Positions 31,875-39,342 are shown, counted from the first letter of the stretch. The stretch is 64,000 bases of DNA from Myxococcota bacterium (GCA_039028615.1 JBCCHT010000001.1:512001-576000); one strand, 5' to 3'. Numbers and translations are program-made. Notes: a model not told the origin generated them from the letters alone.

Positions 31875-32897
31875 CTAGGGTGCCGTGGGCTCGTAGTGAC
31901 CGTCGGGCAATACCGTCGGCAACGCATAGGCCCGGTCGGTCATGAGGCCGTGCATGGCCACATCGATCGTCTCGAACTGCTCGGGCGTGCACGCTTCCCA
32001 CTCGATGGCGATCTCGTTGCAACGACTGCCGAAGTCCTGCCCACCCAGCCAGCTCGTGAGCGCCCAGTAGAAGTACTCGGTGGCCATGCACTCGTAGTCG
32101 CAGGTCTGATCGTCGTAGTGGTACCAGGCCTCGCGCGGGTAGCTGGCGGGGACGGATTCGAAATGACCGCCGCGCGCCACGTCCATCGCCTCGGCCATGG
32201 CGCTGTCCCGCTCACCGAACACGTCGGGGTAGGTCTCCGACCAGCCGTAGTGCGTCACTAGGTGCAAGACCTCTTCGAGCGACGCATCGAAGTCGCCCTG
32301 CGCGGCTCCGTCGGGATGGGTCTCGGCGTCATAGAGATCCTGGAGGCCATAGCCCTGGTCGAACACCCCTTCGAGCTGACCGATGTTGGCCTCGAGCTCG
32401 GCCTCGGTCGCGAACATCACGATGGACGCCCGGTTGCCCTGGAGCGTGGCGAGCACGGCCGGATCGTCCACTTCACAGTTCTCGTCGTTGTCGAGGTACT
32501 GCCCCAGCACCCCGACCGCGTGCACGAGCTTGGCTTCACCCACGCTCGGGGTGGCGTAGATGTGCAGCCCCCACACGCTGGCGTCGCGATCGAAGACCGC
32601 ATCGAAGCCCGGCGGGGCGTCGTCCGGGAGCTCGGAGATGGTGATCGCCCCCGCGGCGCAGTCCTCCGCTCCCGTGGTGGCGCCCGTCTCGGCCGCGCCC
32701 GTCGTCGTGTCGGCCGCGGTGTCGTCCGAGTCACCGTCGGCGGCATCGCTGCCCTCTCCGTCCGAGGTCGAGCCAACGCCGCTCGTGGTCGGGCTCCCAT
32801 CGTCTCCGCCGGGGACCTCGCTCTCACCGCAGCCGAGCGCGAGGAGCAAGATCGCCGGCAAGCCAGCCCGCGAAAGAGACCGCATATCGAAGTTCAT
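31875..32897 (-). CDS. Lipoprotein with zincin-like EExxH motif (putative metallopeptidase-fold protein)
   Basis: Lipobox ALGC, acidic linker, EEVLHLVTH and C...C..TEYFYW. Confidence 0.6.
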   Translation of the reverse strand: MNFDMRSLSRAGLPAILLLALGCGESEVPGGDDGSPTTSGVGSTSDGEGSDAADGDSDDTAADTTTGAAETGATTGAEDCAAGAITISELPDDAPPGFDAVFDRDASVWGLHIYATPSVGEAKLVHAVGVLGQYLDNDENCEVDDPAVLATLQGNRASIVMFATEAELEANIGQLEGVFDQGYGLQDLYDAETHPDGAAQGDFDASLEEVLHLVTHYGWSETYPDVFGERDSAMAEAMDVARGGHFESVPASYPREAWYHYDDQTCDYECMATEYFYWALTSWLGGQDFGSRCNEIAIEWEACTPEQFETIDVAMHGLMTDRAYALPTVLPDGHYEPTAP

Positions 32898-33067
32898 GTA
32901 CGAACCCTAGGCCGCGACACCGGGTGCGGCCACGACGGGGCTGCGAACGGTGGGTCAGCGTCGATGAACGGTCCTCGTGCGCGACGATCGTCGCCGCCGG
33001 CATCGCCCCGCCAACTGCGTTCTGGCTCGAAACTGGCGAGTATCGCCGTTGCGGGCCGTTTTGACGA

Positions 33068-33096
33068 TTGACAAGGATCGCCGCTCCGCCGACGCT
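33068..33096 (+). promoter_or_regulatory. Putative sigma70-type promoter of the TOMM operon (possibly leaderless)
   Basis: Perfect TTGACA at 33068-33073, a 17-nt spacer, weak -10 GACGCT at 33091-33096, and GTG 6 nt further on. Confidence 0.4.
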
Positions 33097-33102
33097 TGGA
33101 AC

Positions 33103-33585
33103 GTGCCGTGGTCCTTCGAGCGTCATCGCCCCGAACGAGGTGCTCGCGGTGTCGTCGTCGGTAGCGTCTGTTGTAGCTCGTGCTGTTGCTGCTGCTGCTG
33201 CGTGCACACGGTGGCCGGCATCGTCGGGAGCGTGCAGGGCTCGGTCAAAGCGATCAAATCCCAGAGCGACCCCGAGGCGATCGCAGGCGCCGAACGACTG
33301 GTCACCACCTACTGGGTCATCGCCGGCGCGATCGCGTGGCTGGTCGTCATCCTGGGCATGCTGACCGGGCAGCTCATCGCGGGCTTGATCGCGGTCGCCT
33401 TCGTCGGCCCGCTGCTCCAGCTGCTCGTGTCTCTGCTCTGCTTGCCCATGGCGCAGAGTCAACCGCTCGCTCGCCGGGCCGGAGCCATGGCCGCGCTCAA
33501 GCGAATGACCCTGGGTGGCTTGCTCGGGCTCGCGATCGGCATTGCCTTCGGTGGCTTCACCATCGTCGTGTTCATGGGCCTTTAG
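33103..33585 (+). CDS. Putative membrane-embedded TOMM precursor/substrate with poly-Cys motif
   Basis: 160 aa: MPWSFERHRPERGARGVVVGSV-CCSSCCCCCCC-VHT..., then about 3-4 hydrophobic helices. First gene of the YcaO operon. Start inferred. Confidence 0.65.
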   Translation: MPWSFERHRPERGARGVVVGSVCCSSCCCCCCCVHTVAGIVGSVQGSVKAIKSQSDPEAIAGAERLVTTYWVIAGAIAWLVVILGMLTGQLIAGLIAVAFVGPLLQLLVSLLCLPMAQSQPLARRAGAMAALKRMTLGGLLGLAIGIAFGGFTIVVFMGL

Positions 33586-33588
33586 CTG

Positions 33589-34209
33589 ATGGGCAAGTCA
33601 CCGCTTCGCCGTCGCCTCGCCGTAGGCTCCGCCCTGCTCTTCGCCGGCCTGTGCGTCTACGCCTGGTACCGGGGCACGGTCCCCGACGACACCTGGCGCG
33701 AGCCCTCCTCCGCCGACGAGCGCGTCCGCTGCCAGCTCGTCGAGTCCCCGGTCGGCACTCCCGTGCGCTGCGTGGCCTTCGTCGACCTGCCCTCCGCCGC
33801 GCTCATCGAGGCGGTCCGCGACTACGAGTCCTTCCCCGAGATCTTCGATGGTCCCTGGGGCTCCGTGGTGCTGACCAGCATCCAGTCCAAGCCCCCCGAT
33901 CGTGTACACCTCGACGGTCGCGTCGAGGTCCTGGGCGCGCACTGGCCCATCGACATGCACATCGACCACGAGACCACCGACGAAGGATTCGTGGCCGGCT
34001 GGGATGCCCATGACGACGAGGGTCGGGTCAATCGCGGGCGCTGGGTGGTCACCGCCAAGGGAGACGCGACCGCCATCGTCGCCTACGAGCTCGAAGTGCA
34101 AGCGCCGTGGAGTCCCACCTTCTTGGTCAACGACGTGCTGCTGACGCGCATGAAAGACCCGCTGCGGCGGATCATCGAGCACGCGCACGCCGAGCACGAC
34201 GGCGCATGA
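33589..34209 (+). CDS. Membrane-anchored SRPBCC/polyketide cyclase-like (START-fold) protein
   Basis: N-terminal TM, 'VRDYESFPEIF', 'NRGRWVV' and 'VAYELEVQ..W.P.FLVN'. Starts 3 nt after the precursor stop. Confidence 0.7.
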   Translation: MGKSPLRRRLAVGSALLFAGLCVYAWYRGTVPDDTWREPSSADERVRCQLVESPVGTPVRCVAFVDLPSAALIEAVRDYESFPEIFDGPWGSVVLTSIQSKPPDRVHLDGRVEVLGAHWPIDMHIDHETTDEGFVAGWDAHDDEGRVNRGRWVVTAKGDATAIVAYELEVQAPWSPTFLVNDVLLTRMKDPLRRIIEHAHAEHDGA

Positions 34210-35015
34210 GCGAGACCACCCTCGTCCCCGTCGCACCGCTCACCGTGGTGCCACAGCCGGGCTGCGTGCGCGTCTTGGCCGGCGAGGACCTGCGCTTCAC
34301 GGTGCGCGGCGAAGGACTCGAGACTTGGTTGCCCGCAGTCTTGGCCGCCCTCGGGCCAGGGGTGTCGGGCACCGAAGCCTCCGCGCATGCTCCCCTCGCT
34401 CAGCGCAACGATGCGCTCGAGATCCTCGCCCGCCTCACCACCGAGCGACTGCTCGTCGAGCAAGCGAGCTCGAAGCCGACCGCCGCCCTCACCGTCGAGG
34501 TCGTCGGTGAGGGGCCCTTGGCGTCGCGCCTGCGCGATCAGCTGCCCGCTCCCGATACGGGCGCTTCGGGTGCCCCCCGGCTGTCCCTCATCGTTCAGAG
34601 CACGCTCGACTACCGCTGGGCCCGCGAGGCTGATCTGCGGGCCGCCTCCGAGGGTCACTGGCGGCTGTGGGTCAGCGATGGCGCGGCGGCCCGCGGCTGG
34701 GTGGGGCCGGTGATGCGCCCCGAAGGCGGCCCCTGCCTCGACTGTCTGCTCACCGCGTTCGAGCGCCTCTCCCCCGAGCCCGAGCTGTGGCGAGCGCTGC
34801 TGGAACACCCGGGCCCCTTCGCCACCTCCACCGTGCCCGAGGCCGCGCGCGACATCCTGTGCCGCATCACCGCCTGGAAGCTCTCGGGGGCGACCGAGTC
34901 CGACGTTCCGGCCGCGGTCCATCGCCTGCACGTGCTCGAGCTGGCGACCTTCGAGGTGAACAGTCACGTCGTGCCGGTCGATCCCGATTGCCCCCGGGAG
35001 CACGCCGCCACATGA
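34206..35015 (+). CDS. TOMM cyclodehydratase scaffold (RRE plus E1/ThiF-like C protein)
   Basis: ATGA overlap. N-terminal RRE-like region ending LARLTTERLL, V.VVGEG, WVGP...PEGGPCLDC and C-terminal PVDPDCP. Confidence 0.8.
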   Translation: MSETTLVPVAPLTVVPQPGCVRVLAGEDLRFTVRGEGLETWLPAVLAALGPGVSGTEASAHAPLAQRNDALEILARLTTERLLVEQASSKPTAALTVEVVGEGPLASRLRDQLPAPDTGASGAPRLSLIVQSTLDYRWAREADLRAASEGHWRLWVSDGAAARGWVGPVMRPEGGPCLDCLLTAFERLSPEPELWRALLEHPGPFATSTVPEAARDILCRITAWKLSGATESDVPAAVHRLHVLELATFEVNSHVVPVDPDCPREHAAT

Positions 35016-36232
35016 GCCGAGCGCTCGAGGCATGGCTGTGCAACCCCTTCACCGGGGCGCTGGTGGCCGAGGGCGAGGTCCCGCGACGCCCCCACGATCC
35101 CGACGTGTTCGTGCATGCGGCCACCGTCGCCCCGCGCGGGCCCCAGCGGCAGGCGCTGGTCGTCGGTGGGGCCGGCTTCACCCCCGAAGCGGCTCGGGGC
35201 GCCGCCCTCGGCGAGGCGATCGAGCGCTTCGAGAGCTGGCCACGACCGAGCGACGGAGCCCTAGCCCGACCGCCCCAAGGCGAGCCCGCCTGGGGCCCCG
35301 ACGATTTCGTGCTGTTTTCGGCGCAGCAGTACGCGGCCGATGGTTTTCCTTTTGCGCCGCCCGACGAAGCCTCGCTGTCGCCCTACGTGTGCGCGCGAAG
35401 GATCGACGACGGCCACCCCGTGTGGATCCCTCAGGCCTTCGTCTACCTCGATGCCCCCGGCGGACACCACGTCGCGCCGATGAGTTCGACCGGCCTTTCC
35501 GCGGGGCCACCGGGACACCCCACCGTGTTGCGCGGCCTCCAAGAAGTCATCGAACGGGACGCGCTGGTGCGGGCGTGGTGGGGCGAGTACGGCATCGAGC
35601 GCTGGGATCCCGAGCTCGTATGGGAGCAGCTCGGTCCCGAGCTCGCTGCCATCGCCCGGCGTCCGAACCTGCGCTACGCCTTCCACCGCATTCGCACGCC
35701 CTACTGCGCGCACGCCTGCGTGGTCACGCTGGTCGGCGAAACGCTCGAGGGCGACTGCCTCAGCGTGGGCTCGGCGTGTCGCGCGACCCGTCGGGAGAGC
35801 CTGACCAAGGCGTTGCTCGAGGCCATCCAGGGGCGGCACTACGTGCGCTATCGAATCTCGCAGGACGACCCCTGGTCGGAGGTCCCCGTGAGCTTCGAAG
35901 AGCACGCGTGCTGGTACAGCCGCTGGCCGGAGCGTTGGGCCGACACCGCGTTCGCGCGTGCCGATGCCGCCTGCGATCCCGACGCGGCCCAGCGCACCGA
36001 TGACCTCGCCGCGCTGCTGGGCGCCCTCGGGCCCGACCACCCCGCCGTCGTGCGCATCGTGACCCCGCCCATCGTGGCCCGCCTCGCCCCGGGGTGGCGC
36101 GTGCTCAAGGTCGTCGTGTCCGGCCTGGTGCCGCTGCACGGCGATCACCGCATGGCCCACCTGGGTGCCGCTCGGTGGCGCAACCGGCCCTTCGAACAAT
36201 GGTTGGCGTATCCACCCCACCCCTTTGCATGA
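35012..36232 (+). CDS. YcaO-family azoline-forming cyclodehydratase (D protein)
   Basis: ATGA overlap. GGAG...ALGEAIER, SSTGLSAG, GLQEVIERDA, KALLEA and Pro-rich C-terminus YPPHPFA. Confidence 0.92.
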   Translation: MSRALEAWLCNPFTGALVAEGEVPRRPHDPDVFVHAATVAPRGPQRQALVVGGAGFTPEAARGAALGEAIERFESWPRPSDGALARPPQGEPAWGPDDFVLFSAQQYAADGFPFAPPDEASLSPYVCARRIDDGHPVWIPQAFVYLDAPGGHHVAPMSSTGLSAGPPGHPTVLRGLQEVIERDALVRAWWGEYGIERWDPELVWEQLGPELAAIARRPNLRYAFHRIRTPYCAHACVVTLVGETLEGDCLSVGSACRATRRESLTKALLEAIQGRHYVRYRISQDDPWSEVPVSFEEHACWYSRWPERWADTAFARADAACDPDAAQRTDDLAALLGALGPDHPAVVRIVTPPIVARLAPGWRVLKVVVSGLVPLHGDHRMAHLGAARWRNRPFEQWLAYPPHPFA

Positions 36233-36245
36233 GCGATGATATGGC

Positions 36246-36977
36246 ATGAGCGTGAAGCGTCCGCGACTTCGCCCGCTGCTGCCCGAGCTCGACCCCACGA
36301 GCTTCCCCGCGTTTCGCGATCGCATCCTCGAAGCCGAAGCCGACGCTCCGAGCCACGCGGTGCGTCGCTATCCCGGCTTCCCGCGCGTCGAGCTGCCGCG
36401 CCCCCGGCATCGCCGGTTGCCTCGCTTCGACGACGTCGTCACCCGACGGCGGACCTGCCGAGCCTTCGAGCCCCGGCTTCCCGACGCGAAAGCCCTTTCG
36501 GCATGGCTGGAGCTCGGCCATGGCGTCACGGGTCCCGATGGTCGGGGACCCACGCCATCGGCCGGCAACCTCCAGGCGGTTCAGCTCGTGCTCGTGCCGC
36601 TGTGTTCCGGTTGGCTCGGCGCCGGGGCCTACCACTACGACCGGGGGCAACACGGGCTCGCACGGATCGGTGACGGAGCCCCCGACTGGAACGAAGTGGT
36701 GCCGTCGCTGAGCCAAGCTCCGGGCGCGCCGTTGCTGGTCGTCATCGCCGGAGAAGAGACCGCGGTCGCGCACAAGTACGGTGAACGCGGGCTGCGGTTC
36801 TTGTTGCTGGAAGCGGGCCAGGTCCTGCAGTCGCTGGGGATGGCCGCGGCTGCTGGAGGCCTCGCCGTGACTCCGATGGGCGGGTTCTTCGAAGGCCAGG
36901 TGCACGCACATACCGGACTGGGCGCGGACGACCTCGTGCTGGCGACCGCCGTGGCGGGGATCCCCGCTCGGCCGTGA
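36246..36977 (+). CDS. SagB/McbC-type FMN-dependent azoline dehydrogenase
   Basis: RRRTCRAF, PSAGNL, GAYHYD, KYGERGLRFLLLEAG (Lys-Tyr catalytic motif) and GGFFE. Confidence 0.9.
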   Translation: MSVKRPRLRPLLPELDPTSFPAFRDRILEAEADAPSHAVRRYPGFPRVELPRPRHRRLPRFDDVVTRRRTCRAFEPRLPDAKALSAWLELGHGVTGPDGRGPTPSAGNLQAVQLVLVPLCSGWLGAGAYHYDRGQHGLARIGDGAPDWNEVVPSLSQAPGAPLLVVIAGEETAVAHKYGERGLRFLLLEAGQVLQSLGMAAAAGGLAVTPMGGFFEGQVHAHTGLGADDLVLATAVAGIPARP

Positions 36978-37061
36978 CTCTATTGAACATCGCCTCCACG
37001 TCGTGCCCAAGCGCGCGCTCACCATGGCGCCTGCACATCGCGGTGCTAGAGTCCTCGATCG

Positions 37062-38075
37062 ATGCCCGCCTGGGTGCCAGCGCTCTCGCTCGCGTTGCTC
37101 AGTGCACCGTCTGTGGATGAGGCTCGGCTTCGGGTCACCATCGAAGGCGAGCCCGGCTGCATCGACTCCGAGCGGGTGGTCGAGGCTGCGATCGAGCGCT
37201 TCGACGACCAGCGTTGGCAGCCGGTGCAAATGCAGGTCTGGCTCGACGAGGCGCCCAACGGAGGTCACGCCGCGCGCTATCGGCTCGAGTCGGCGGCGGC
37301 GGTAGGGCGCGGGCAGGTCGTCACCACCGATTGCGCCACGCTCACGGCCGTATTGGCCATCAAGCTGGGTCTGGCCGCCGTGCCGGGTCGAGCCCTCGAT
37401 CTTCGTCCGGGGCCCCATCCGCTGGAGGGCACCTGGGAACCCGCGGCGACCGAGAGTGCAGTCGCGGCCTCGGACACCGAGCGACCGCTCGACGCCCCAC
37501 CCACGGAAGCACCGACCTCGATGGCCAGGCCCCGCCTCCCCCAAATTCGGCTGGGGTCCGGCGCGGGCGTCATGCTCGGTGGCCTCGGCCCAGCCAGCGG
37601 TCGTTTCGAGCTCGGGGCCGCCCTCGCCGAGCAGCCCTGGGTCGTGGAGCTGTACGGCACGATGGCCGTGGCCCCGACGACCCGACTCGATGACGCGATC
37701 ACCCGGCGTCTCCGCTCGTACGGTGCCGGCCTTCGAGGTTGTGCTGCCGCTCGCTGGCGCCGCCTCGAAATTCCCGCGTGCCTCGGGATGGAGGCCGCCA
37801 CTGTCCGCATCGACGTCGCCGGTCTCCCGCAGGGCGGCGTGGGGCACGAGCCGTGGGTCGTCGCGGCGGCGCACGTCCGCCCGCAGGTCGCCATCACGCG
37901 GCGCGTCGGACTGTGGCTCGCGACCATGGCCGGCGTCTCACTGCGGCGCCCCGCCTTTTCCGTGACCGGACTCGGCACCGTCTTCCGCAGTGATTCCATA
38001 CTGTTGACGGCCACGGCGGGAATTTCGATCGCAATCGCCGGGCCCACGACGGATCCACGGGGTTCCGTACAGTAG
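37062..38075 (+). CDS. Secreted/outer-membrane hypothetical protein co-operonic with ECF sigma
   Basis: Signal peptide, a Cys pair and a C-terminal amphipathic beta-strand region. TAGAGT box upstream; stop overlaps the sigma start. Confidence 0.6.
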   Translation: MPAWVPALSLALLSAPSVDEARLRVTIEGEPGCIDSERVVEAAIERFDDQRWQPVQMQVWLDEAPNGGHAARYRLESAAAVGRGQVVTTDCATLTAVLAIKLGLAAVPGRALDLRPGPHPLEGTWEPAATESAVAASDTERPLDAPPTEAPTSMARPRLPQIRLGSGAGVMLGGLGPASGRFELGAALAEQPWVVELYGTMAVAPTTRLDDAITRRLRSYGAGLRGCAAARWRRLEIPACLGMEAATVRIDVAGLPQGGVGHEPWVVAAAHVRPQVAITRRVGLWLATMAGVSLRRPAFSVTGLGTVFRSDSILLTATAGISIAIAGPTTDPRGSVQ

Positions 38076-38602
38076 TGAAGCTGGTGGCCCAGGCTGCACC
38101 CAGTGAGCGCTTCGATGCGCTGTTCCGTGAACACCGTGGCTTCGTGTTTCGCTCCCTGCGGCACCTGGGGAGCCCGCCCGAGGCCACCGAAGACCTGACC
38201 CAGGAGGTCTTCATCACCCTGTATCGGCGCTCGTCGGACTTCGACGCGTCTCGTTCTGCTCGCGCGTGGCTGTTCACCACCGCTCGCAACGTGCTGGCCA
38301 ACTACCGTCGGGTGAGCGCCCGGGCCCAGCGCAAGCTGAAGGCGCTCGCCGATGCTCCGAACGAGCCCACGCGGACCTTCGATCCCCAGCGGCTCGAGAC
38401 GGCGCGGACGGTGGAGCAGCTGCTCCTGCAAATGGACGAGCCCAAGCGACTGGTCCTGCTGCTGGCCGACGCCGAAGGCCTCACCGGGCCCGAGCTCGCC
38501 GCCGCCCTCGACATCCCCCTCAACACTGCCTACTCGCGCCTGCGCTCCGCTCGGTCGGAGTTCGAGCGCCTCGTAGCCCCCCTGGATGGGTCGACGCCAT
38601 GA
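38075..38602 (+). CDS. ECF RNA polymerase sigma factor
   Basis: EDLTQEVF, RAWLFTTARN and ELAAALDIPLNTAYSRL (regions 2 and 4). Confidence 0.93.
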   Translation: MKLVAQAAPSERFDALFREHRGFVFRSLRHLGSPPEATEDLTQEVFITLYRRSSDFDASRSARAWLFTTARNVLANYRRVSARAQRKLKALADAPNEPTRTFDPQRLETARTVEQLLLQMDEPKRLVLLLADAEGLTGPELAAALDIPLNTAYSRLRSARSEFERLVAPLDGSTP

Positions 38603-39342
38603 CCACGCCACCTCCGCTCAGCGAACACGCGCGGGATCGACTCGCCTCCGTCCGGGAGCTCCGCGAGCCGATCGTCGACATCGAGCAGAGCCTCGCCGCG
38701 GTCCACGAGCGCATCGGCACCCAGACCCCGCCTCCCGGAGGCACCGCGGGCTCGGGTGGTGCGCTGAAGCTGGCGGGAGGATTGGCCGCATCGGTGGTGG
38801 TCGGCGCGGCCACGTGGATGTTGCTGTCGAGCGCACAACCTCAGACGCAGCCGCCCGCGGATCCGGTCGCCGTCACGCAGCCCCCGGAGAGCGTCGAGCC
38901 CGAGCCTCCCCATGCCCTCGCCGCGGCCCCTACCCCCGCCCCCGCTGCGGCCAAAGAGCCATCGACCACCACCACCGTCATCGAAGCCTCTGCTCCACCG
39001 AGCACTTCCGAGACGAAACCTGCTGCCCCTCGACGCACCGCCCGGCGTCGTCGGGTTCAGGCCCCGTCCGGCGAAGATGCCCTGACGGCGGAGCTCCGCC
39101 TCATCGATCGCGCCCGCGGCCAGCTCCGTGCCCGTCGCTTCGATGCGGCCATCCGCAGCCTCGAGCGCCACGCACGGACCTTCCCGTACGGACAGCTCGT
39201 CGACGAACGCAACGTCATGCTCGTCGAGGCCCTGTGTGGAGACGGCCAAACCGAGCGCGCCCGCAGCAAGGCTCAGGCCTTCCTCGCCGCTGCCCCGGGC
39301 TCTCCCTTCGCGCCGCGGCTTCGAGACTCCTGCGCACACTAG
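38599..39342 (+). CDS. Putative anti-sigma factor (TM, Pro-rich linker, TPR-like C-terminus)
   Basis: ATGA overlap with the sigma gene; L.AEL.LI..AR...H...FP.GQL..ER...ALC motif. Confidence 0.75.
   Translation: MTTPPPLSEHARDRLASVRELREPIVDIEQSLAAVHERIGTQTPPPGGTAGSGGALKLAGGLAASVVVGAATWMLLSSAQPQTQPPADPVAVTQPPESVEPEPPHALAAAPTPAPAAAKEPSTTTTVIEASAPPSTSETKPAAPRRTARRRRVQAPSGEDALTAELRLIDRARGQLRARRFDAAIRSLERHARTFPYGQLVDERNVMLVEALCGDGQTERARSKAQAFLAAAPGSPFAPRLRDSCAH

Follow-up and report, generated by a model that had tools for sequence, protein, structure and literature searches.

Introduction

The known products of azole-forming YcaO systems are small peptides, toxins as well as antibiotics, that are secreted. 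In peptides of the streptolysin S and microcin B17 types, a B/C/D triad converts Cys, Ser and Thr to thiazoles and oxazoles, and the precursors are small and soluble. Systems of the streptolysin S type comprise the substrate SagA and the enzymes SagBCD, accompanied by a CaaX-type protease and an ABC exporter. In microcin B17 the azole synthetase McbBCD acts on McbA, a small soluble exported peptide whose leader is removed by unlinked housekeeping proteases. A Pro-rich C-terminus of the PxPxP type is a mark of azoline-forming YcaOs. YcaO chemistry also reaches a full-size protein in the case of YcaO-TfuA, which thioamidates McrA, but there one thioamide is placed on a soluble subunit of an enzyme, and no C protein, leader or dehydrogenase takes part. 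Integral membrane proteins of the TIGR04222 family, which carry Cys-rich tails, have been proposed on bioinformatic grounds as substrates of MNIO enzymes (PMC12452194).

Here, an operon found in a 64-kb stretch of DNA (hereafter the window) was analyzed, in which a gene, here called A, encoding a predicted membrane protein with a Cys tract is followed by genes for a C protein, a YcaO and a dehydrogenase of the SagB type. Its features, all on the + strand, are the following:

33103–33585, +, gene A, candidate substrate, 160 aa (ORF, family of 184 clusters, AF2 model)
33103–33168, +, leader-like N-terminus of A, residues 1–22, with an HRPER motif and then hydrophobic VVVGSV (family alignment)
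33169–33201, +, core of A, CCSSCCCCCCC, residues 23–33, presumed thiazole/oxazole site (read from the sequence)
33202–33231, +, post-core motif of A, VHTVAGIVGS (family [L/V]H[S/T]xGGxxGA, H35 nearly invariant)
33298–33582, +, membrane domain of A, three predicted TM helices (hydropathy; conserved Y70, W71, P103, Q106, G142 and G146)
33589–34209, +, SRPBCC/START-fold protein with an N-terminal TM helix at residues 5–30 (family HMM, AF2, Foldseek)
34206–35015, +, C protein, TOMM precursor leader-binding/E1-like docking (TIGR03882)
35012–36232, +, YcaO cyclodehydratase, the D protein, its C-terminus of the PxPxP type (PF02624)
36246–36977, +, SagB-type FMN dehydrogenase (B protein) with a KY motif (PF00881)

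As in SagA/SagBCD, a substrate candidate with a contiguous core of Cys plus Ser/Thr adjoins a stand-alone C protein, a YcaO and a putative SagB-type dehydrogenase. Unlike SagA, proteins of the A family are 150–200 aa long and have three predicted TM helices past the core and a leader of only about 10–25 residues; the operon also has a START partner, while a CaaX-type protease or ABC exporter is not conserved nearby, and its YcaO and dehydrogenase score below the cut-offs of the curated SagD and SagB models. The three-part azole synthetase recalls McbBCD, but whereas the core of McbA is rich in Gly, Cys and Ser, that of A is nearly pure Cys and is fused upstream of a membrane domain. LynD, TruD and MusD (PDB 4v1t, 4bs9, 7u58) likewise combine a leader-binding domain with a YcaO; they are, however, single fused proteins that form azolines on soluble peptides, whereas the operon encodes C and D by separate genes and has a dehydrogenase in addition. 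The locus shares with YcaO-TfuA/McrA a YcaO whose target would be a protein of full size and not a peptide, and differs in having a C protein, a leader and a dehydrogenase in the operon. What it shares with the TIGR04222 proposal is a RiPP-type enzyme that would act on a low-complexity, Cys-rich stretch within an integral membrane protein; there, however, the enzyme is an MNIO and the segment is C-terminal and predicted to be periplasmic, whereas A is linked to a YcaO and has no TIGR04222 match. No comparable system tying azole enzymes to a membrane-protein substrate was found in the literature searched.

Results

The operon spans 33103 to 36977 and consists of five co-oriented, tightly coupled ORFs in the order A, SRPBCC/START, C protein, YcaO and SagB-type dehydrogenase. 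Gene A stops at 33585 and the START gene begins at 33589, leaving a 3-nt gap; one ATGA overlap joins START to C at 34206 and another joins C to YcaO at 35012, and the SagB gene at 36246 follows after 13 nt. Re-reading of ORFs and junctions in the sequence thus agreed with the initial annotation, which had described five co-oriented genes joined in this way.

The assignment of an RRE/E1-like scaffold and a YcaO was likewise upheld by matches to TIGR03882 and PF02624, and the putative SagB-like dehydrogenase matched PF00881. The C protein scored 49.4 bits against TIGR03882 (cut-off 36.9), Cys residues 177, 180 and 262 are invariant in its family, and the family profile has a weak match (E 0.002) to LynD in its N-terminal domains, the range for LynD, TruD and MusD being E 0.002–0.05. 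The C gene was present in 50 of 56 orthologous loci, the other six being cut at a contig end or resting on a partial YcaO match. The YcaO matched PF02624 with E 8e-37 (127.7 bits, cut-off 25.7) and had more than 400 relatives, with 42–53% identity among the 120 listed; its nearest solved structures are MusD, TruD and LynD (E 1e-15 to 8e-13), and matches to TIGR03266 and PDB 6ci7, which are related to YcaO-TfuA, were weak. Its C-terminus, noted earlier as Pro-rich, ends in YPPHPFA, with P402, H403, P404 and F405 invariant in 30 relatives. The dehydrogenase scored above the cut-off for PF00881 (E 9e-15, 55.7 bits), and the KY motif reported for it was found conserved: 40 of 46 relatives have K177, and Y178 occurs in every one. 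Against the SagD-family model TIGR03604 the YcaO reached 122.5 bits (cut-off 219.25), and against TIGR03605 the dehydrogenase reached 58.6 bits (cut-off 78.4). Because both fall below these curated cut-offs, their chemistry could differ from that of the described systems, yielding for instance azolines only, or a thioamide.

The second gene had been read as encoding an SRPBCC protein, a reading that holds on the basis of a helix-grip fold and a family HMM match, although the copy in the window, taken alone, matches PF03364 only weakly (E 0.087). All 31 family members match PF03364 at E ≤ 1 (best 2.9e-11) and 28 match PF10604. The AF2 model (pLDDT 95) gave 128 PDB matches at E ≤ 0.001 in Foldseek, led by START domains and TcmN-type aromatase/cyclases. 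The N-terminus of the protein carries 2.9 K+R and 0 D+E, and the 20 residues past the helix are net negative; from this the START domain is predicted to face the periplasm, where it may bind a hydrophobic polyazole or a lipid.

The protein encoded by gene A includes the sequence FERHRPER-GARGVVVGSV-CCSSCCCCCCC-VHTVAGIVGS, and past it come hydrophobic segments at about residues 65–119 and 135–160. Its core has 9 Cys and 2 Ser in 11 residues and is the sole Cys-dense tract among ORFs of the 64-kb window, the runner-up being 5 Cys in 12 residues in off-frame ORFs. A single A gene was detected in this genome. Its start codon is ambiguous between GTG 33103, TTG 33049 and GTG 32977, all upstream of the tract, and no stop interrupts the frame from 32977 on. 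In the public annotation, gene call P0121 opens at V37, past the tract; no strong ribosome-binding site was seen by eye ahead of GTG 33103; and GC3 is lower over leader and tract (0.63–0.73) than downstream (0.83–1.0). Given the uncertain start and the lower GC3, translation of the tract in this genome rests on conservation in the family, of which one member with 85% identity retains the same tract. Leader and tract of A-type genes tend to be clipped by gene callers (P0121, P0316).

The A family comprises 184 clusters at 50% identity (E ≤ 1e-3), and its members carry the label "hypothetical protein"; the close relatives all come from metagenome bins. Searches of Pfam-A (in a local copy from which PF27786 is absent) and NCBIfam, including TIGR04222, returned no family at E ≤ 0.01. 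The fold had no PDB match at E ≤ 0.001, and the Atlas returned no named cluster. One relative of A has a precomputed match to PF27786. The common architecture is [H/L]PPER, 8–12 residues, 5–11 Cys (median 8) mixed with G/S/T/A, the motif [L/V]H[S/T]xGGxxGA and three predicted TM helices. The Cys tract was present in 144 of the 150 relatives listed (median 8 Cys), and in 133 of 141 it lies 8–12 residues past the ER of the leader motif. The leader consensus is HPPER; E11, R12, C32 and C33 are invariant in the alignment, and most family alignments start at query residue 4–8. Tandem copies, up to six per locus, have a conserved leader and a variable core. An HPPER leader at fixed spacing from the tract, together with tandem paralogues of variable core, are traits expected of RiPP substrates and support, at the level of sequence, this role for A.

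Hydropathy predicts TM helices in A at about residues 66–88, 91–116 and 135–160, and the mean K+R per segment is 4.9 for the N-terminus, 3.0 for the linker and 3.55 for loop 2, versus 0.16 for loop 1. By the positive-inside rule, this distribution places the N-terminus, the tract and both its flanks on the cytoplasmic side, an orientation that we infer for the family. The earlier description of A as polytopic is consistent with these predictions. The AF2 model (pLDDT 88) has helices at residues 30–52, 57–87, 91–118 and 122–159; the leader has low confidence, as expected of a disordered leader. The tract is embedded in 28 consecutive uncharged residues with a hydrophobic score, part of which AF2 packs as a fourth helix, and it might insert into the membrane co-translationally, beyond the reach of the enzymes.

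Linkage of A to the enzymes was assessed in 46 loci of YcaO orthologues, each with at least 700 nt of upstream DNA. One to six A genes were found upstream on the same strand in 40 of these C/YcaO/SagB loci, 28 of which also contain the START gene; an adjacent A gene was absent in the other 6. Among five genomes without an adjacent A that were checked, four have A elsewhere beside a START gene, two of them with a SagB there as well, and no A gene was found in the fifth, that of locus L063. Searching metagenomes with A gave five contigs, each of which agrees with the operon over the part that it covers. Among 251 Planctomycetota genomes, where only the top-ranked candidates per genome were scored, 7 have A; the YcaO subfamily (E ≤ 1e-160) was found in these 7 and no others, and two of them were known beforehand. 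The A-linked machinery spans Planctomycetota, Myxococcota, Acidobacteriota and other lineages, and more distant YcaO relatives (L076, L077) use classical short precursors. The initial annotation had named a predominance of A homologues without YcaO genes as evidence against its proposal; what was found, 40 of 46 loci and 7 of 7 genomes, is the reverse. Its statement that no leader protease or exporter lies nearby extends to the flanks of 54 loci, where no conserved protease, C39 peptidase or ABC exporter was seen. Its failure to find a small precursor ORF is matched by the lack of any other Cys-dense ORF in the window, and among ORFs of 100 aa and over the loci showed no further family of conserved small ORFs. 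A conventional small soluble precursor that is cleaved and exported was not found; the sole candidate is A, with its core at residues 23–33.

Complex prediction of the C protein with residues 1–60 of A gave an ipSAE of 0.55, against 0.02 for the best of three controls. Of 157 solved complexes, 116 pass the mark applied, as do 2 of 215 mismatched pairs; passes at or below 0.60 comprise only 18 of the 157 solved complexes, plus both passing mismatches. The runs share at least 55% of contacts, and the partner has a pLDDT of at least 45, the A part being poorly folded. Since solved heterocyclase–leader complexes exist, the pass may reflect likeness to known structures. The model weakly supports binding of the A leader by the C protein: structural prediction of the RRE with the leader, which the initial annotation had put forward, separated this pair from its controls, but with a modest score and a poorly folded partner.

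Discussion

That A is the substrate of the adjacent B/C/D machinery is supported by linkage, the leader motif, its fixed spacing to the tract and the variable-core paralogues. The reading we favor, with a probability of roughly 0.7, is that gene A is the substrate of the neighboring C protein, YcaO and SagB and that the polyazole is kept on the membrane protein; the chemistry, topology, membrane retention and function of the product are what we infer. The C protein would bind the short N-terminal leader through its HPPER motif, and the YcaO, with ATP, would cyclodehydrate to azolines the unbroken run of Cys (and Ser/Thr) that lies some 10 positions downstream, and the SagB-type flavoprotein would oxidize these azolines to azoles, giving a contiguous chain of about 8–11 thiazole/oxazole rings. 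Modification would take place at the cytoplasmic face, as the tract is predicted to have cytoplasmic sequence on either side. The polyazole would stay covalently attached to the conserved three-helix domain of A, and such retention would make it not a secreted peptide but part of an inner-membrane protein, a rigid element that lacks charge and seeks the membrane.

A could also be a precursor from which the polyazole is released by a housekeeping protease cutting near [L/V]H[S/T]xGG, and perhaps at the leader too. The core resembles in composition those of linear azole peptides of the cytolysin type, it is closely followed by a conserved Gly-Gly, tandem variable-core paralogues are typical of secreted RiPPs, and processing without a clustered protease is conceivable because microcin B17 relies on unlinked ones. 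But the Gly-Gly follows the core instead of preceding it, so that two cuts would be required, the flanks of the 54 loci show no conserved protease, C39 peptidase or ABC exporter, and the nearly invariant Y70, W71, P103, Q106, G142 and G146 point to a role of the membrane domain beyond anchoring. We consider release unlikely, and give no better odds to its corollary, a freed streptolysin-S-like polythiazole with the membrane domain as mere carrier, export aid or cis-immunity module. It is improbable that the tract escapes heterocyclization altogether, with its thiols used directly for metal or Fe-S binding, acylation or redox, or with A as an immunity or export partner while C, D and B modify an unlinked short precursor. 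Poly-Cys tracts can bind soft metals, the enzymes score below curated TOMM cut-offs, A lies away from C and D in a few genomes, and the distant YcaO relatives have classical precursors; such a role, however, sits poorly with the strict co-occurrence in 7 of 7 genomes, the adjacency in 40 of 46 loci, the leader-like motif at fixed distance, the variable-core paralogues, and the lack of another Cys-dense ORF in the window or of another conserved small ORF family among ORFs of at least 100 aa.

Most improbable of all is that the tract is untranslated here, the gene beginning past a (TGC)n-like run that would be 5′ untranslated sequence. The start of P0121 at V37, the drop in GC3 and the weak ribosome-binding context by eye before GTG 33103 would fit this, but the frame is open from 32977, leader and tract are conserved as protein in 144 of 150 listed relatives from several phyla, with most alignments starting at residue 4–8, and the 85%-identical relative has the same tract. 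If the polyazole is retained, as we favor, a further and speculative step, in our judgment a long shot, would see 8–11 conjugated thiazoles as a membrane-embedded prosthetic element, a new class of built-in cofactor and not an antibiotic. On an estimate from general peptide geometry, they might form a rod or hairpin of about 30–40 Å, about the thickness of a bilayer, conceivably held by the three-helix anchor with its nearby invariant His, Gln, Tyr and Trp. Such a rod might, at the same slim odds, lead from the cytoplasmic leaflet to the periplasmic START partner and might, for instance, conduct electrons or ions, perturb the membrane, act as a sensor, or be a handle that is passed to the other side.

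What is new here, as read from the sequences, is TOMM-type machinery tied to integral membrane proteins of an undescribed family, with no processing or export genes traveling along. Standard RiPP mining would miss precursors of the A type, since gene callers clip their leader and tract. The likely product is a membrane protein carrying a thiazole chain and not a free peptide. If the tract is modified, YcaO/SagB chemistry would reach membrane proteins, an HPPER leader, a spacer of about 10 residues and poly-Cys would constitute a testable substrate motif, and the question would arise of what use a cell makes of a polythiazole chain fixed on its own inner membrane.

Enzymes encoded by the operon

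The initial annotation had described five co-oriented, tightly joined genes. Five plus-strand ORFs were found in the window from 33103 to 36977, separated by one 3-nt gap, two ATGA overlaps and one 13-nt gap:

33103-33585 (+), gene A, 160-aa candidate substrate with a leader, a Cys tract and three predicted transmembrane (TM) helices
33589-34209 (+), START/SRPBCC protein
34206-35015 (+), C protein
35012-36232 (+), YcaO (D)
36246-36977 (+), SagB-type dehydrogenase (B)

The third ORF, previously proposed to be an RRE/E1-like scaffold, matched the leader-binding C protein of azol(in)e-RiPP (TOMM) systems above threshold (TIGR03882, 49.4 bits versus a cut-off of 36.9), and its profile weakly matched the N-terminal domains of LynD (E 0.002). 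The fourth ORF codes for a YcaO (PF02624, E 8e-37) scoring below the cut-off of the curated SagD-family model (122.5 bits versus 219); the solved structures nearest to its profile were the azoline-forming heterocyclases MusD, TruD and LynD (E 1e-15 to 8e-13). Its Pro-rich C-terminus, already remarked upon, ends in YPPHPFA, with P402, H403, P404 and F405 invariant in 30 relatives. The fifth ORF encodes a nitroreductase-fold, SagB-like dehydrogenase (PF00881, E 9e-15) that remained under the cut-off of TIGR03605 (58.6 versus 78.4 bits); the KY motif claimed for it was recovered, with Lys in 40 of 46 relatives and Tyr in all 46. Combined, the domain matches, motifs and nearest structures indicate that the three proteins are probably of the azole-forming kind, divergent but still recognisable as such.

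The window copy of the second gene by itself gave no significant match to Pfam or NCBIfam. At the family level its membership of SRPBCC/START is clear, in line with the earlier assignment: all 31 relatives matched PF03364 at E<=1 (best 2.9e-11), 28 matched PF10604, and the AF2 model (pLDDT 95) retrieved 128 PDB matches with Foldseek at E<=0.001, among which lipid-transfer START domains and polyketide aromatase/cyclases ranked highest.

A scan of 32700-37300 detected no promoter or terminator, and such a scan is uninformative in a genome of 70% GC. Downstream of the operon lie three genes, none of which accompanies it at other loci:

within 37062-39342, 337-aa ORF without family
38075-38602, ECF sigma factor
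within 37062-39342, TPR-containing protein, which may be an anti-sigma factor

The window genome carries four other YcaO genes on contigs C50, C17 (two) and C63, with PF02624 scores of 191-338 bits, well above that of the operon YcaO, in open frames of 621-777 aa; these presumably belong to separate systems.

Gene A and its family

Read from GTG 33103, the A protein is MPWSFERHRPERGARGVVVGSV-CCSSCCCCCCC-VHTVAGIVGS..., followed by hydrophobic segments. It had no match in Pfam or NCBIfam; its model returned only generic helical bundles in a fold search against the PDB, none at E<=0.001; and it fell in no named cluster of the ESM Atlas, its top feature score of 0.86 being under the level that the tool considers meaningful. 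An exhaustive HMMER search recovered homologues forming 184 clusters at 50% identity (E<=1e-3), with alignments mostly spanning query residues ~4-8 to ~148. Where they carry a source annotation, it is almost always 'hypothetical protein' (2 of 92 listed relatives carry other generic labels), and one of these 92, P0277, has a precomputed match to PF27786.1.

The family alignment showed a leader motif, [H/L]PPER, in which E11 and R12 (counted from GTG 33103) are invariant. In 133 of 141 members, 8-12 residues separate the ER pair from the tract. This contains 5-11 Cys (median 8), its few remaining residues being Gly, Ser, Thr or Ala. Beyond it come the motif [L/V]H[S/T]xGGxxGA, a linker that varies, and the membrane domain, in which Y70, W71, P103, Q106, G142 and G146 are nearly invariant. 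Pattern matching found the tract in 144 of 150 listed relatives; some of the six that were missed have gene calls truncated at the N-terminus, as does P0121, the public call for the window gene itself, and at least one reflects a failure of the pattern (P0141, whose tract is visible in the alignment). Consistent with the earlier statement that no small precursor ORF lies near the operon, the tract of A is the only Cys-dense stretch among all ORFs of the 64 kb, and the window genome holds a single A gene.

Tandem paralogues of A were observed at other YcaO loci (six in L029, five in L031, four in L023 and three in L060). These share an almost unchanged leader, e.g. DDLIVRHPPERGR, and their cores range from 2-3 up to 10 Cys; a constant leader joined to a variable core is the pattern of a RiPP precursor family. 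At a further locus, L024 (3850-4466), the A gene is split across two overlapping frames, which could reflect a frameshift or an assembly error.

Linkage of A with the azole enzymes

More than 400 relatives of the operon YcaO were found, of which the 120 listed are 42-53% identical to it. Scanning a single genome for each species yielded 69 loci, the YcaO match being at least 37% identical in 56. In 46 loci, 700 nt or more of sequence precede the first recognised gene; the A profile detected one or more A genes in 40 of these, without exception co-oriented, and a further, partial copy was present at a contig edge. A START gene accompanied A in 28 of the 40. L033, L034, L043, L063, L065 and L071 had no adjacent A. 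Whole-genome searches for the first five of these revealed a single A elsewhere in four genomes, each adjoining a START gene and, in two of them, a SagB gene as well, so that these clusters are split rather than A-less. Regarding the enzymes, ~1.7-1.9 kb lies between the C and YcaO genes in L019 (995-1747 for C, 3624 for YcaO) and L050 (3579-4331 for C, 6001 for YcaO), whereas the two genes are directly adjacent elsewhere.

Of 251 evenly sampled Planctomycetota genomes, scored on the best-ranked candidates per genome, 7 contained A and the same 7 contained the YcaO subfamily (E<=1e-160); related genomes in such a sample are not independent, and two of the seven were already known from the loci. 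One further genome had a weak YcaO match alone (1e-54). The co-occurrence of A homologues with YcaO genes, to which the initial annotation had tied its reading, was thus found in both surveys. A metagenome scan from A, for which the Cys run was the sole usable pattern (at least 593 matching stretches), confirmed A on five short contigs only, a small sample, with gene orders A-START-C-YcaO, A-START-C, A-A-C, A-START, and A-A to the contig end. Close relatives of the operon all come from metagenome bins, as apparently does the window genome. Among sequencing runs, a single DNA run, which may be the source of the assembly, and no RNA run was found for it. Among 72 other genomes of the same order there was no A at E<=1e-3 except one weak match at 8e-4, and no operon-type YcaO at E<=1e-20; the operon looks like an island in its lineage, and close kin are therefore uninformative for comparison.

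When the ORFs of 100 aa or longer in 54 loci were clustered, no family beyond the five genes occurred in more than eight loci. No conserved protease or transporter was found among them, which extends to the other loci the earlier observation that the window operon adjoins no leader protease or exporter. The family present in eight of the 54 loci is a cytochrome P450 (two members scanned) whose gene is divergent and lies upstream of A. It may be an accessory tailoring enzyme, and the window operon has no such neighbour. Examples, in addition to six other loci, are:

L017:915-2330 (-), cytochrome P450
L023:921-2576 (-), cytochrome P450

Comparative genomics supports the membrane protein A as the likely substrate of the azole enzymes.

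Predicted topology and interaction with the C protein

Over 132 aligned relatives of A, the mean number of Lys plus Arg was 4.9 in the N-terminus, 0.14 in the tract and Gly-rich segment (28 residues), 3.0 in the linker, 0.16 in loop 1 and 3.55 in loop 2. Such a distribution points to three TM helices and to a cytoplasmic location of the N-terminus, tract and linker, on the side of the signal-less enzymes. The uncharged tract region is hydrophobic, and in the AF2 model of A (pLDDT 88) residues 30-52 form a helix beside the three TM helices, residues 1-29 being of low confidence; these features suggest that the tract segment may be embedded in the inner leaflet or reach into it. The START protein has an N-terminal helix (residues 5-30) preceded by a K/R-rich, acid-free segment (mean K+R 2.9, D+E 0); the residues after the helix carry a net negative charge. 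By the positive-inside rule its START domain should face the periplasm, this being the least certain of the topology calls.

When the C protein was modelled in complex with residues 1-60 of A, the ipSAE was 0.55, versus 0.02 for the best of three controls, with at least 55% of contacts shared between runs and a partner pLDDT of at least 45. Among solved complexes, 116 of 157 attain the mark thereby passed, as do 2 of 215 mismatched pairs; at 0.60 or under it is attained by only 18 of the solved complexes and by both of those mismatches. Since heterocyclase-leader complexes have already been solved, the pass may mirror likeness to known complexes. A structural prediction of the RRE plus leader complex had been suggested initially as a check, and the outcome weakly supports binding of the A N-terminus by the C protein.

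Proposed mechanism and alternatives

In the mechanism we propose, the C protein would bind the HPPER leader of A, the YcaO would cyclodehydrate the Cys/Ser run about ten residues downstream, and the dehydrogenase would aromatise the rings. The resulting contiguous polyazole would remain joined to the membrane protein. The system would work like the azole synthetases of the streptolysin S and microcin B17 type. Those, however, act on small soluble peptides destined for cleavage and export, which the candidate substrate here does not resemble. A streptolysin-like peptide might instead be freed from A by unlinked proteases; this would fit the precursor-like paralogues, but the loci surveyed show neither a conserved protease nor a conserved exporter, and we regard it as unlikely. 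Still less probable is that A is a thiol-using membrane protein and not a substrate of the enzymes; a Cys-rich tract would suit such a role, but A travels with the enzymes and has a leader with invariant residues.

That the tract is untranslated in the window genome would agree with P0121, which begins at V37, past the tract, and with a GC3 lower over the leader and tract than downstream:

33103-33213 (+), start of A clipped from the public call

The frame of A is open from 32977, and its candidate starts (GTG 33103, GTG 32977 and TTG 33049, the last with GGCGAG ~9-14 nt upstream) all precede the tract; P0316, an 85%-identical relative, is likewise called late, from V19. Lack of translation appears very improbable.

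Modification of A as a whole membrane protein is the reading we prefer. McrA thioamidation is a precedent for a YcaO acting on a whole protein. On bioinformatic grounds, integral membrane proteins of TIGR04222 have been proposed as substrates of MNIO enzymes, which are likewise of RiPP type (PMC12452194), although enzyme class, protein end and membrane side all differ from those of the window system. A full-text search of the main texts of open papers, whose supplements could list such clusters, found no YcaO system with a membrane-protein substrate and none with a START partner; a term search of the 2015 TOMM survey (PMC4603692) gave no instance of 'membrane', 'Planctomyc' or 'Myxococc'.

Distant YcaO clades

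In more distant YcaO clades (26-33% identity), three loci from Acidimicrobiia, Sumerlaeaceae and Planctomycetaceae bins (L070, L072 and L074; YcaO identity 30-32%) have upstream genes for leader/poly-Cys/hydrophobic-domain proteins:

L070:5134-5946, L072:4501-5142 and L074:4503-4859, short N-terminus, poly-Cys run, and C-terminal parts that are hydrophobic or of Gly-zipper type

At L074 there is a START gene in addition. The acidobacterial loci L076 and L077 (YcaO identity 29-30%) provide a useful contrast to the membrane-protein type, with classical short precursors in multiple copies, namely several small plus-strand ORFs (e.g. L077:8209-8397) in which an acidic leader is conserved and the core is of the CxCxC type. 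The poly-Cys hydrophobic proteins upstream of distant YcaOs suggest that the membrane-protein substrate type may extend beyond the A family. Public gene calls clip the N-terminus of this family, and its leader and core would consequently escape standard precursor mining.
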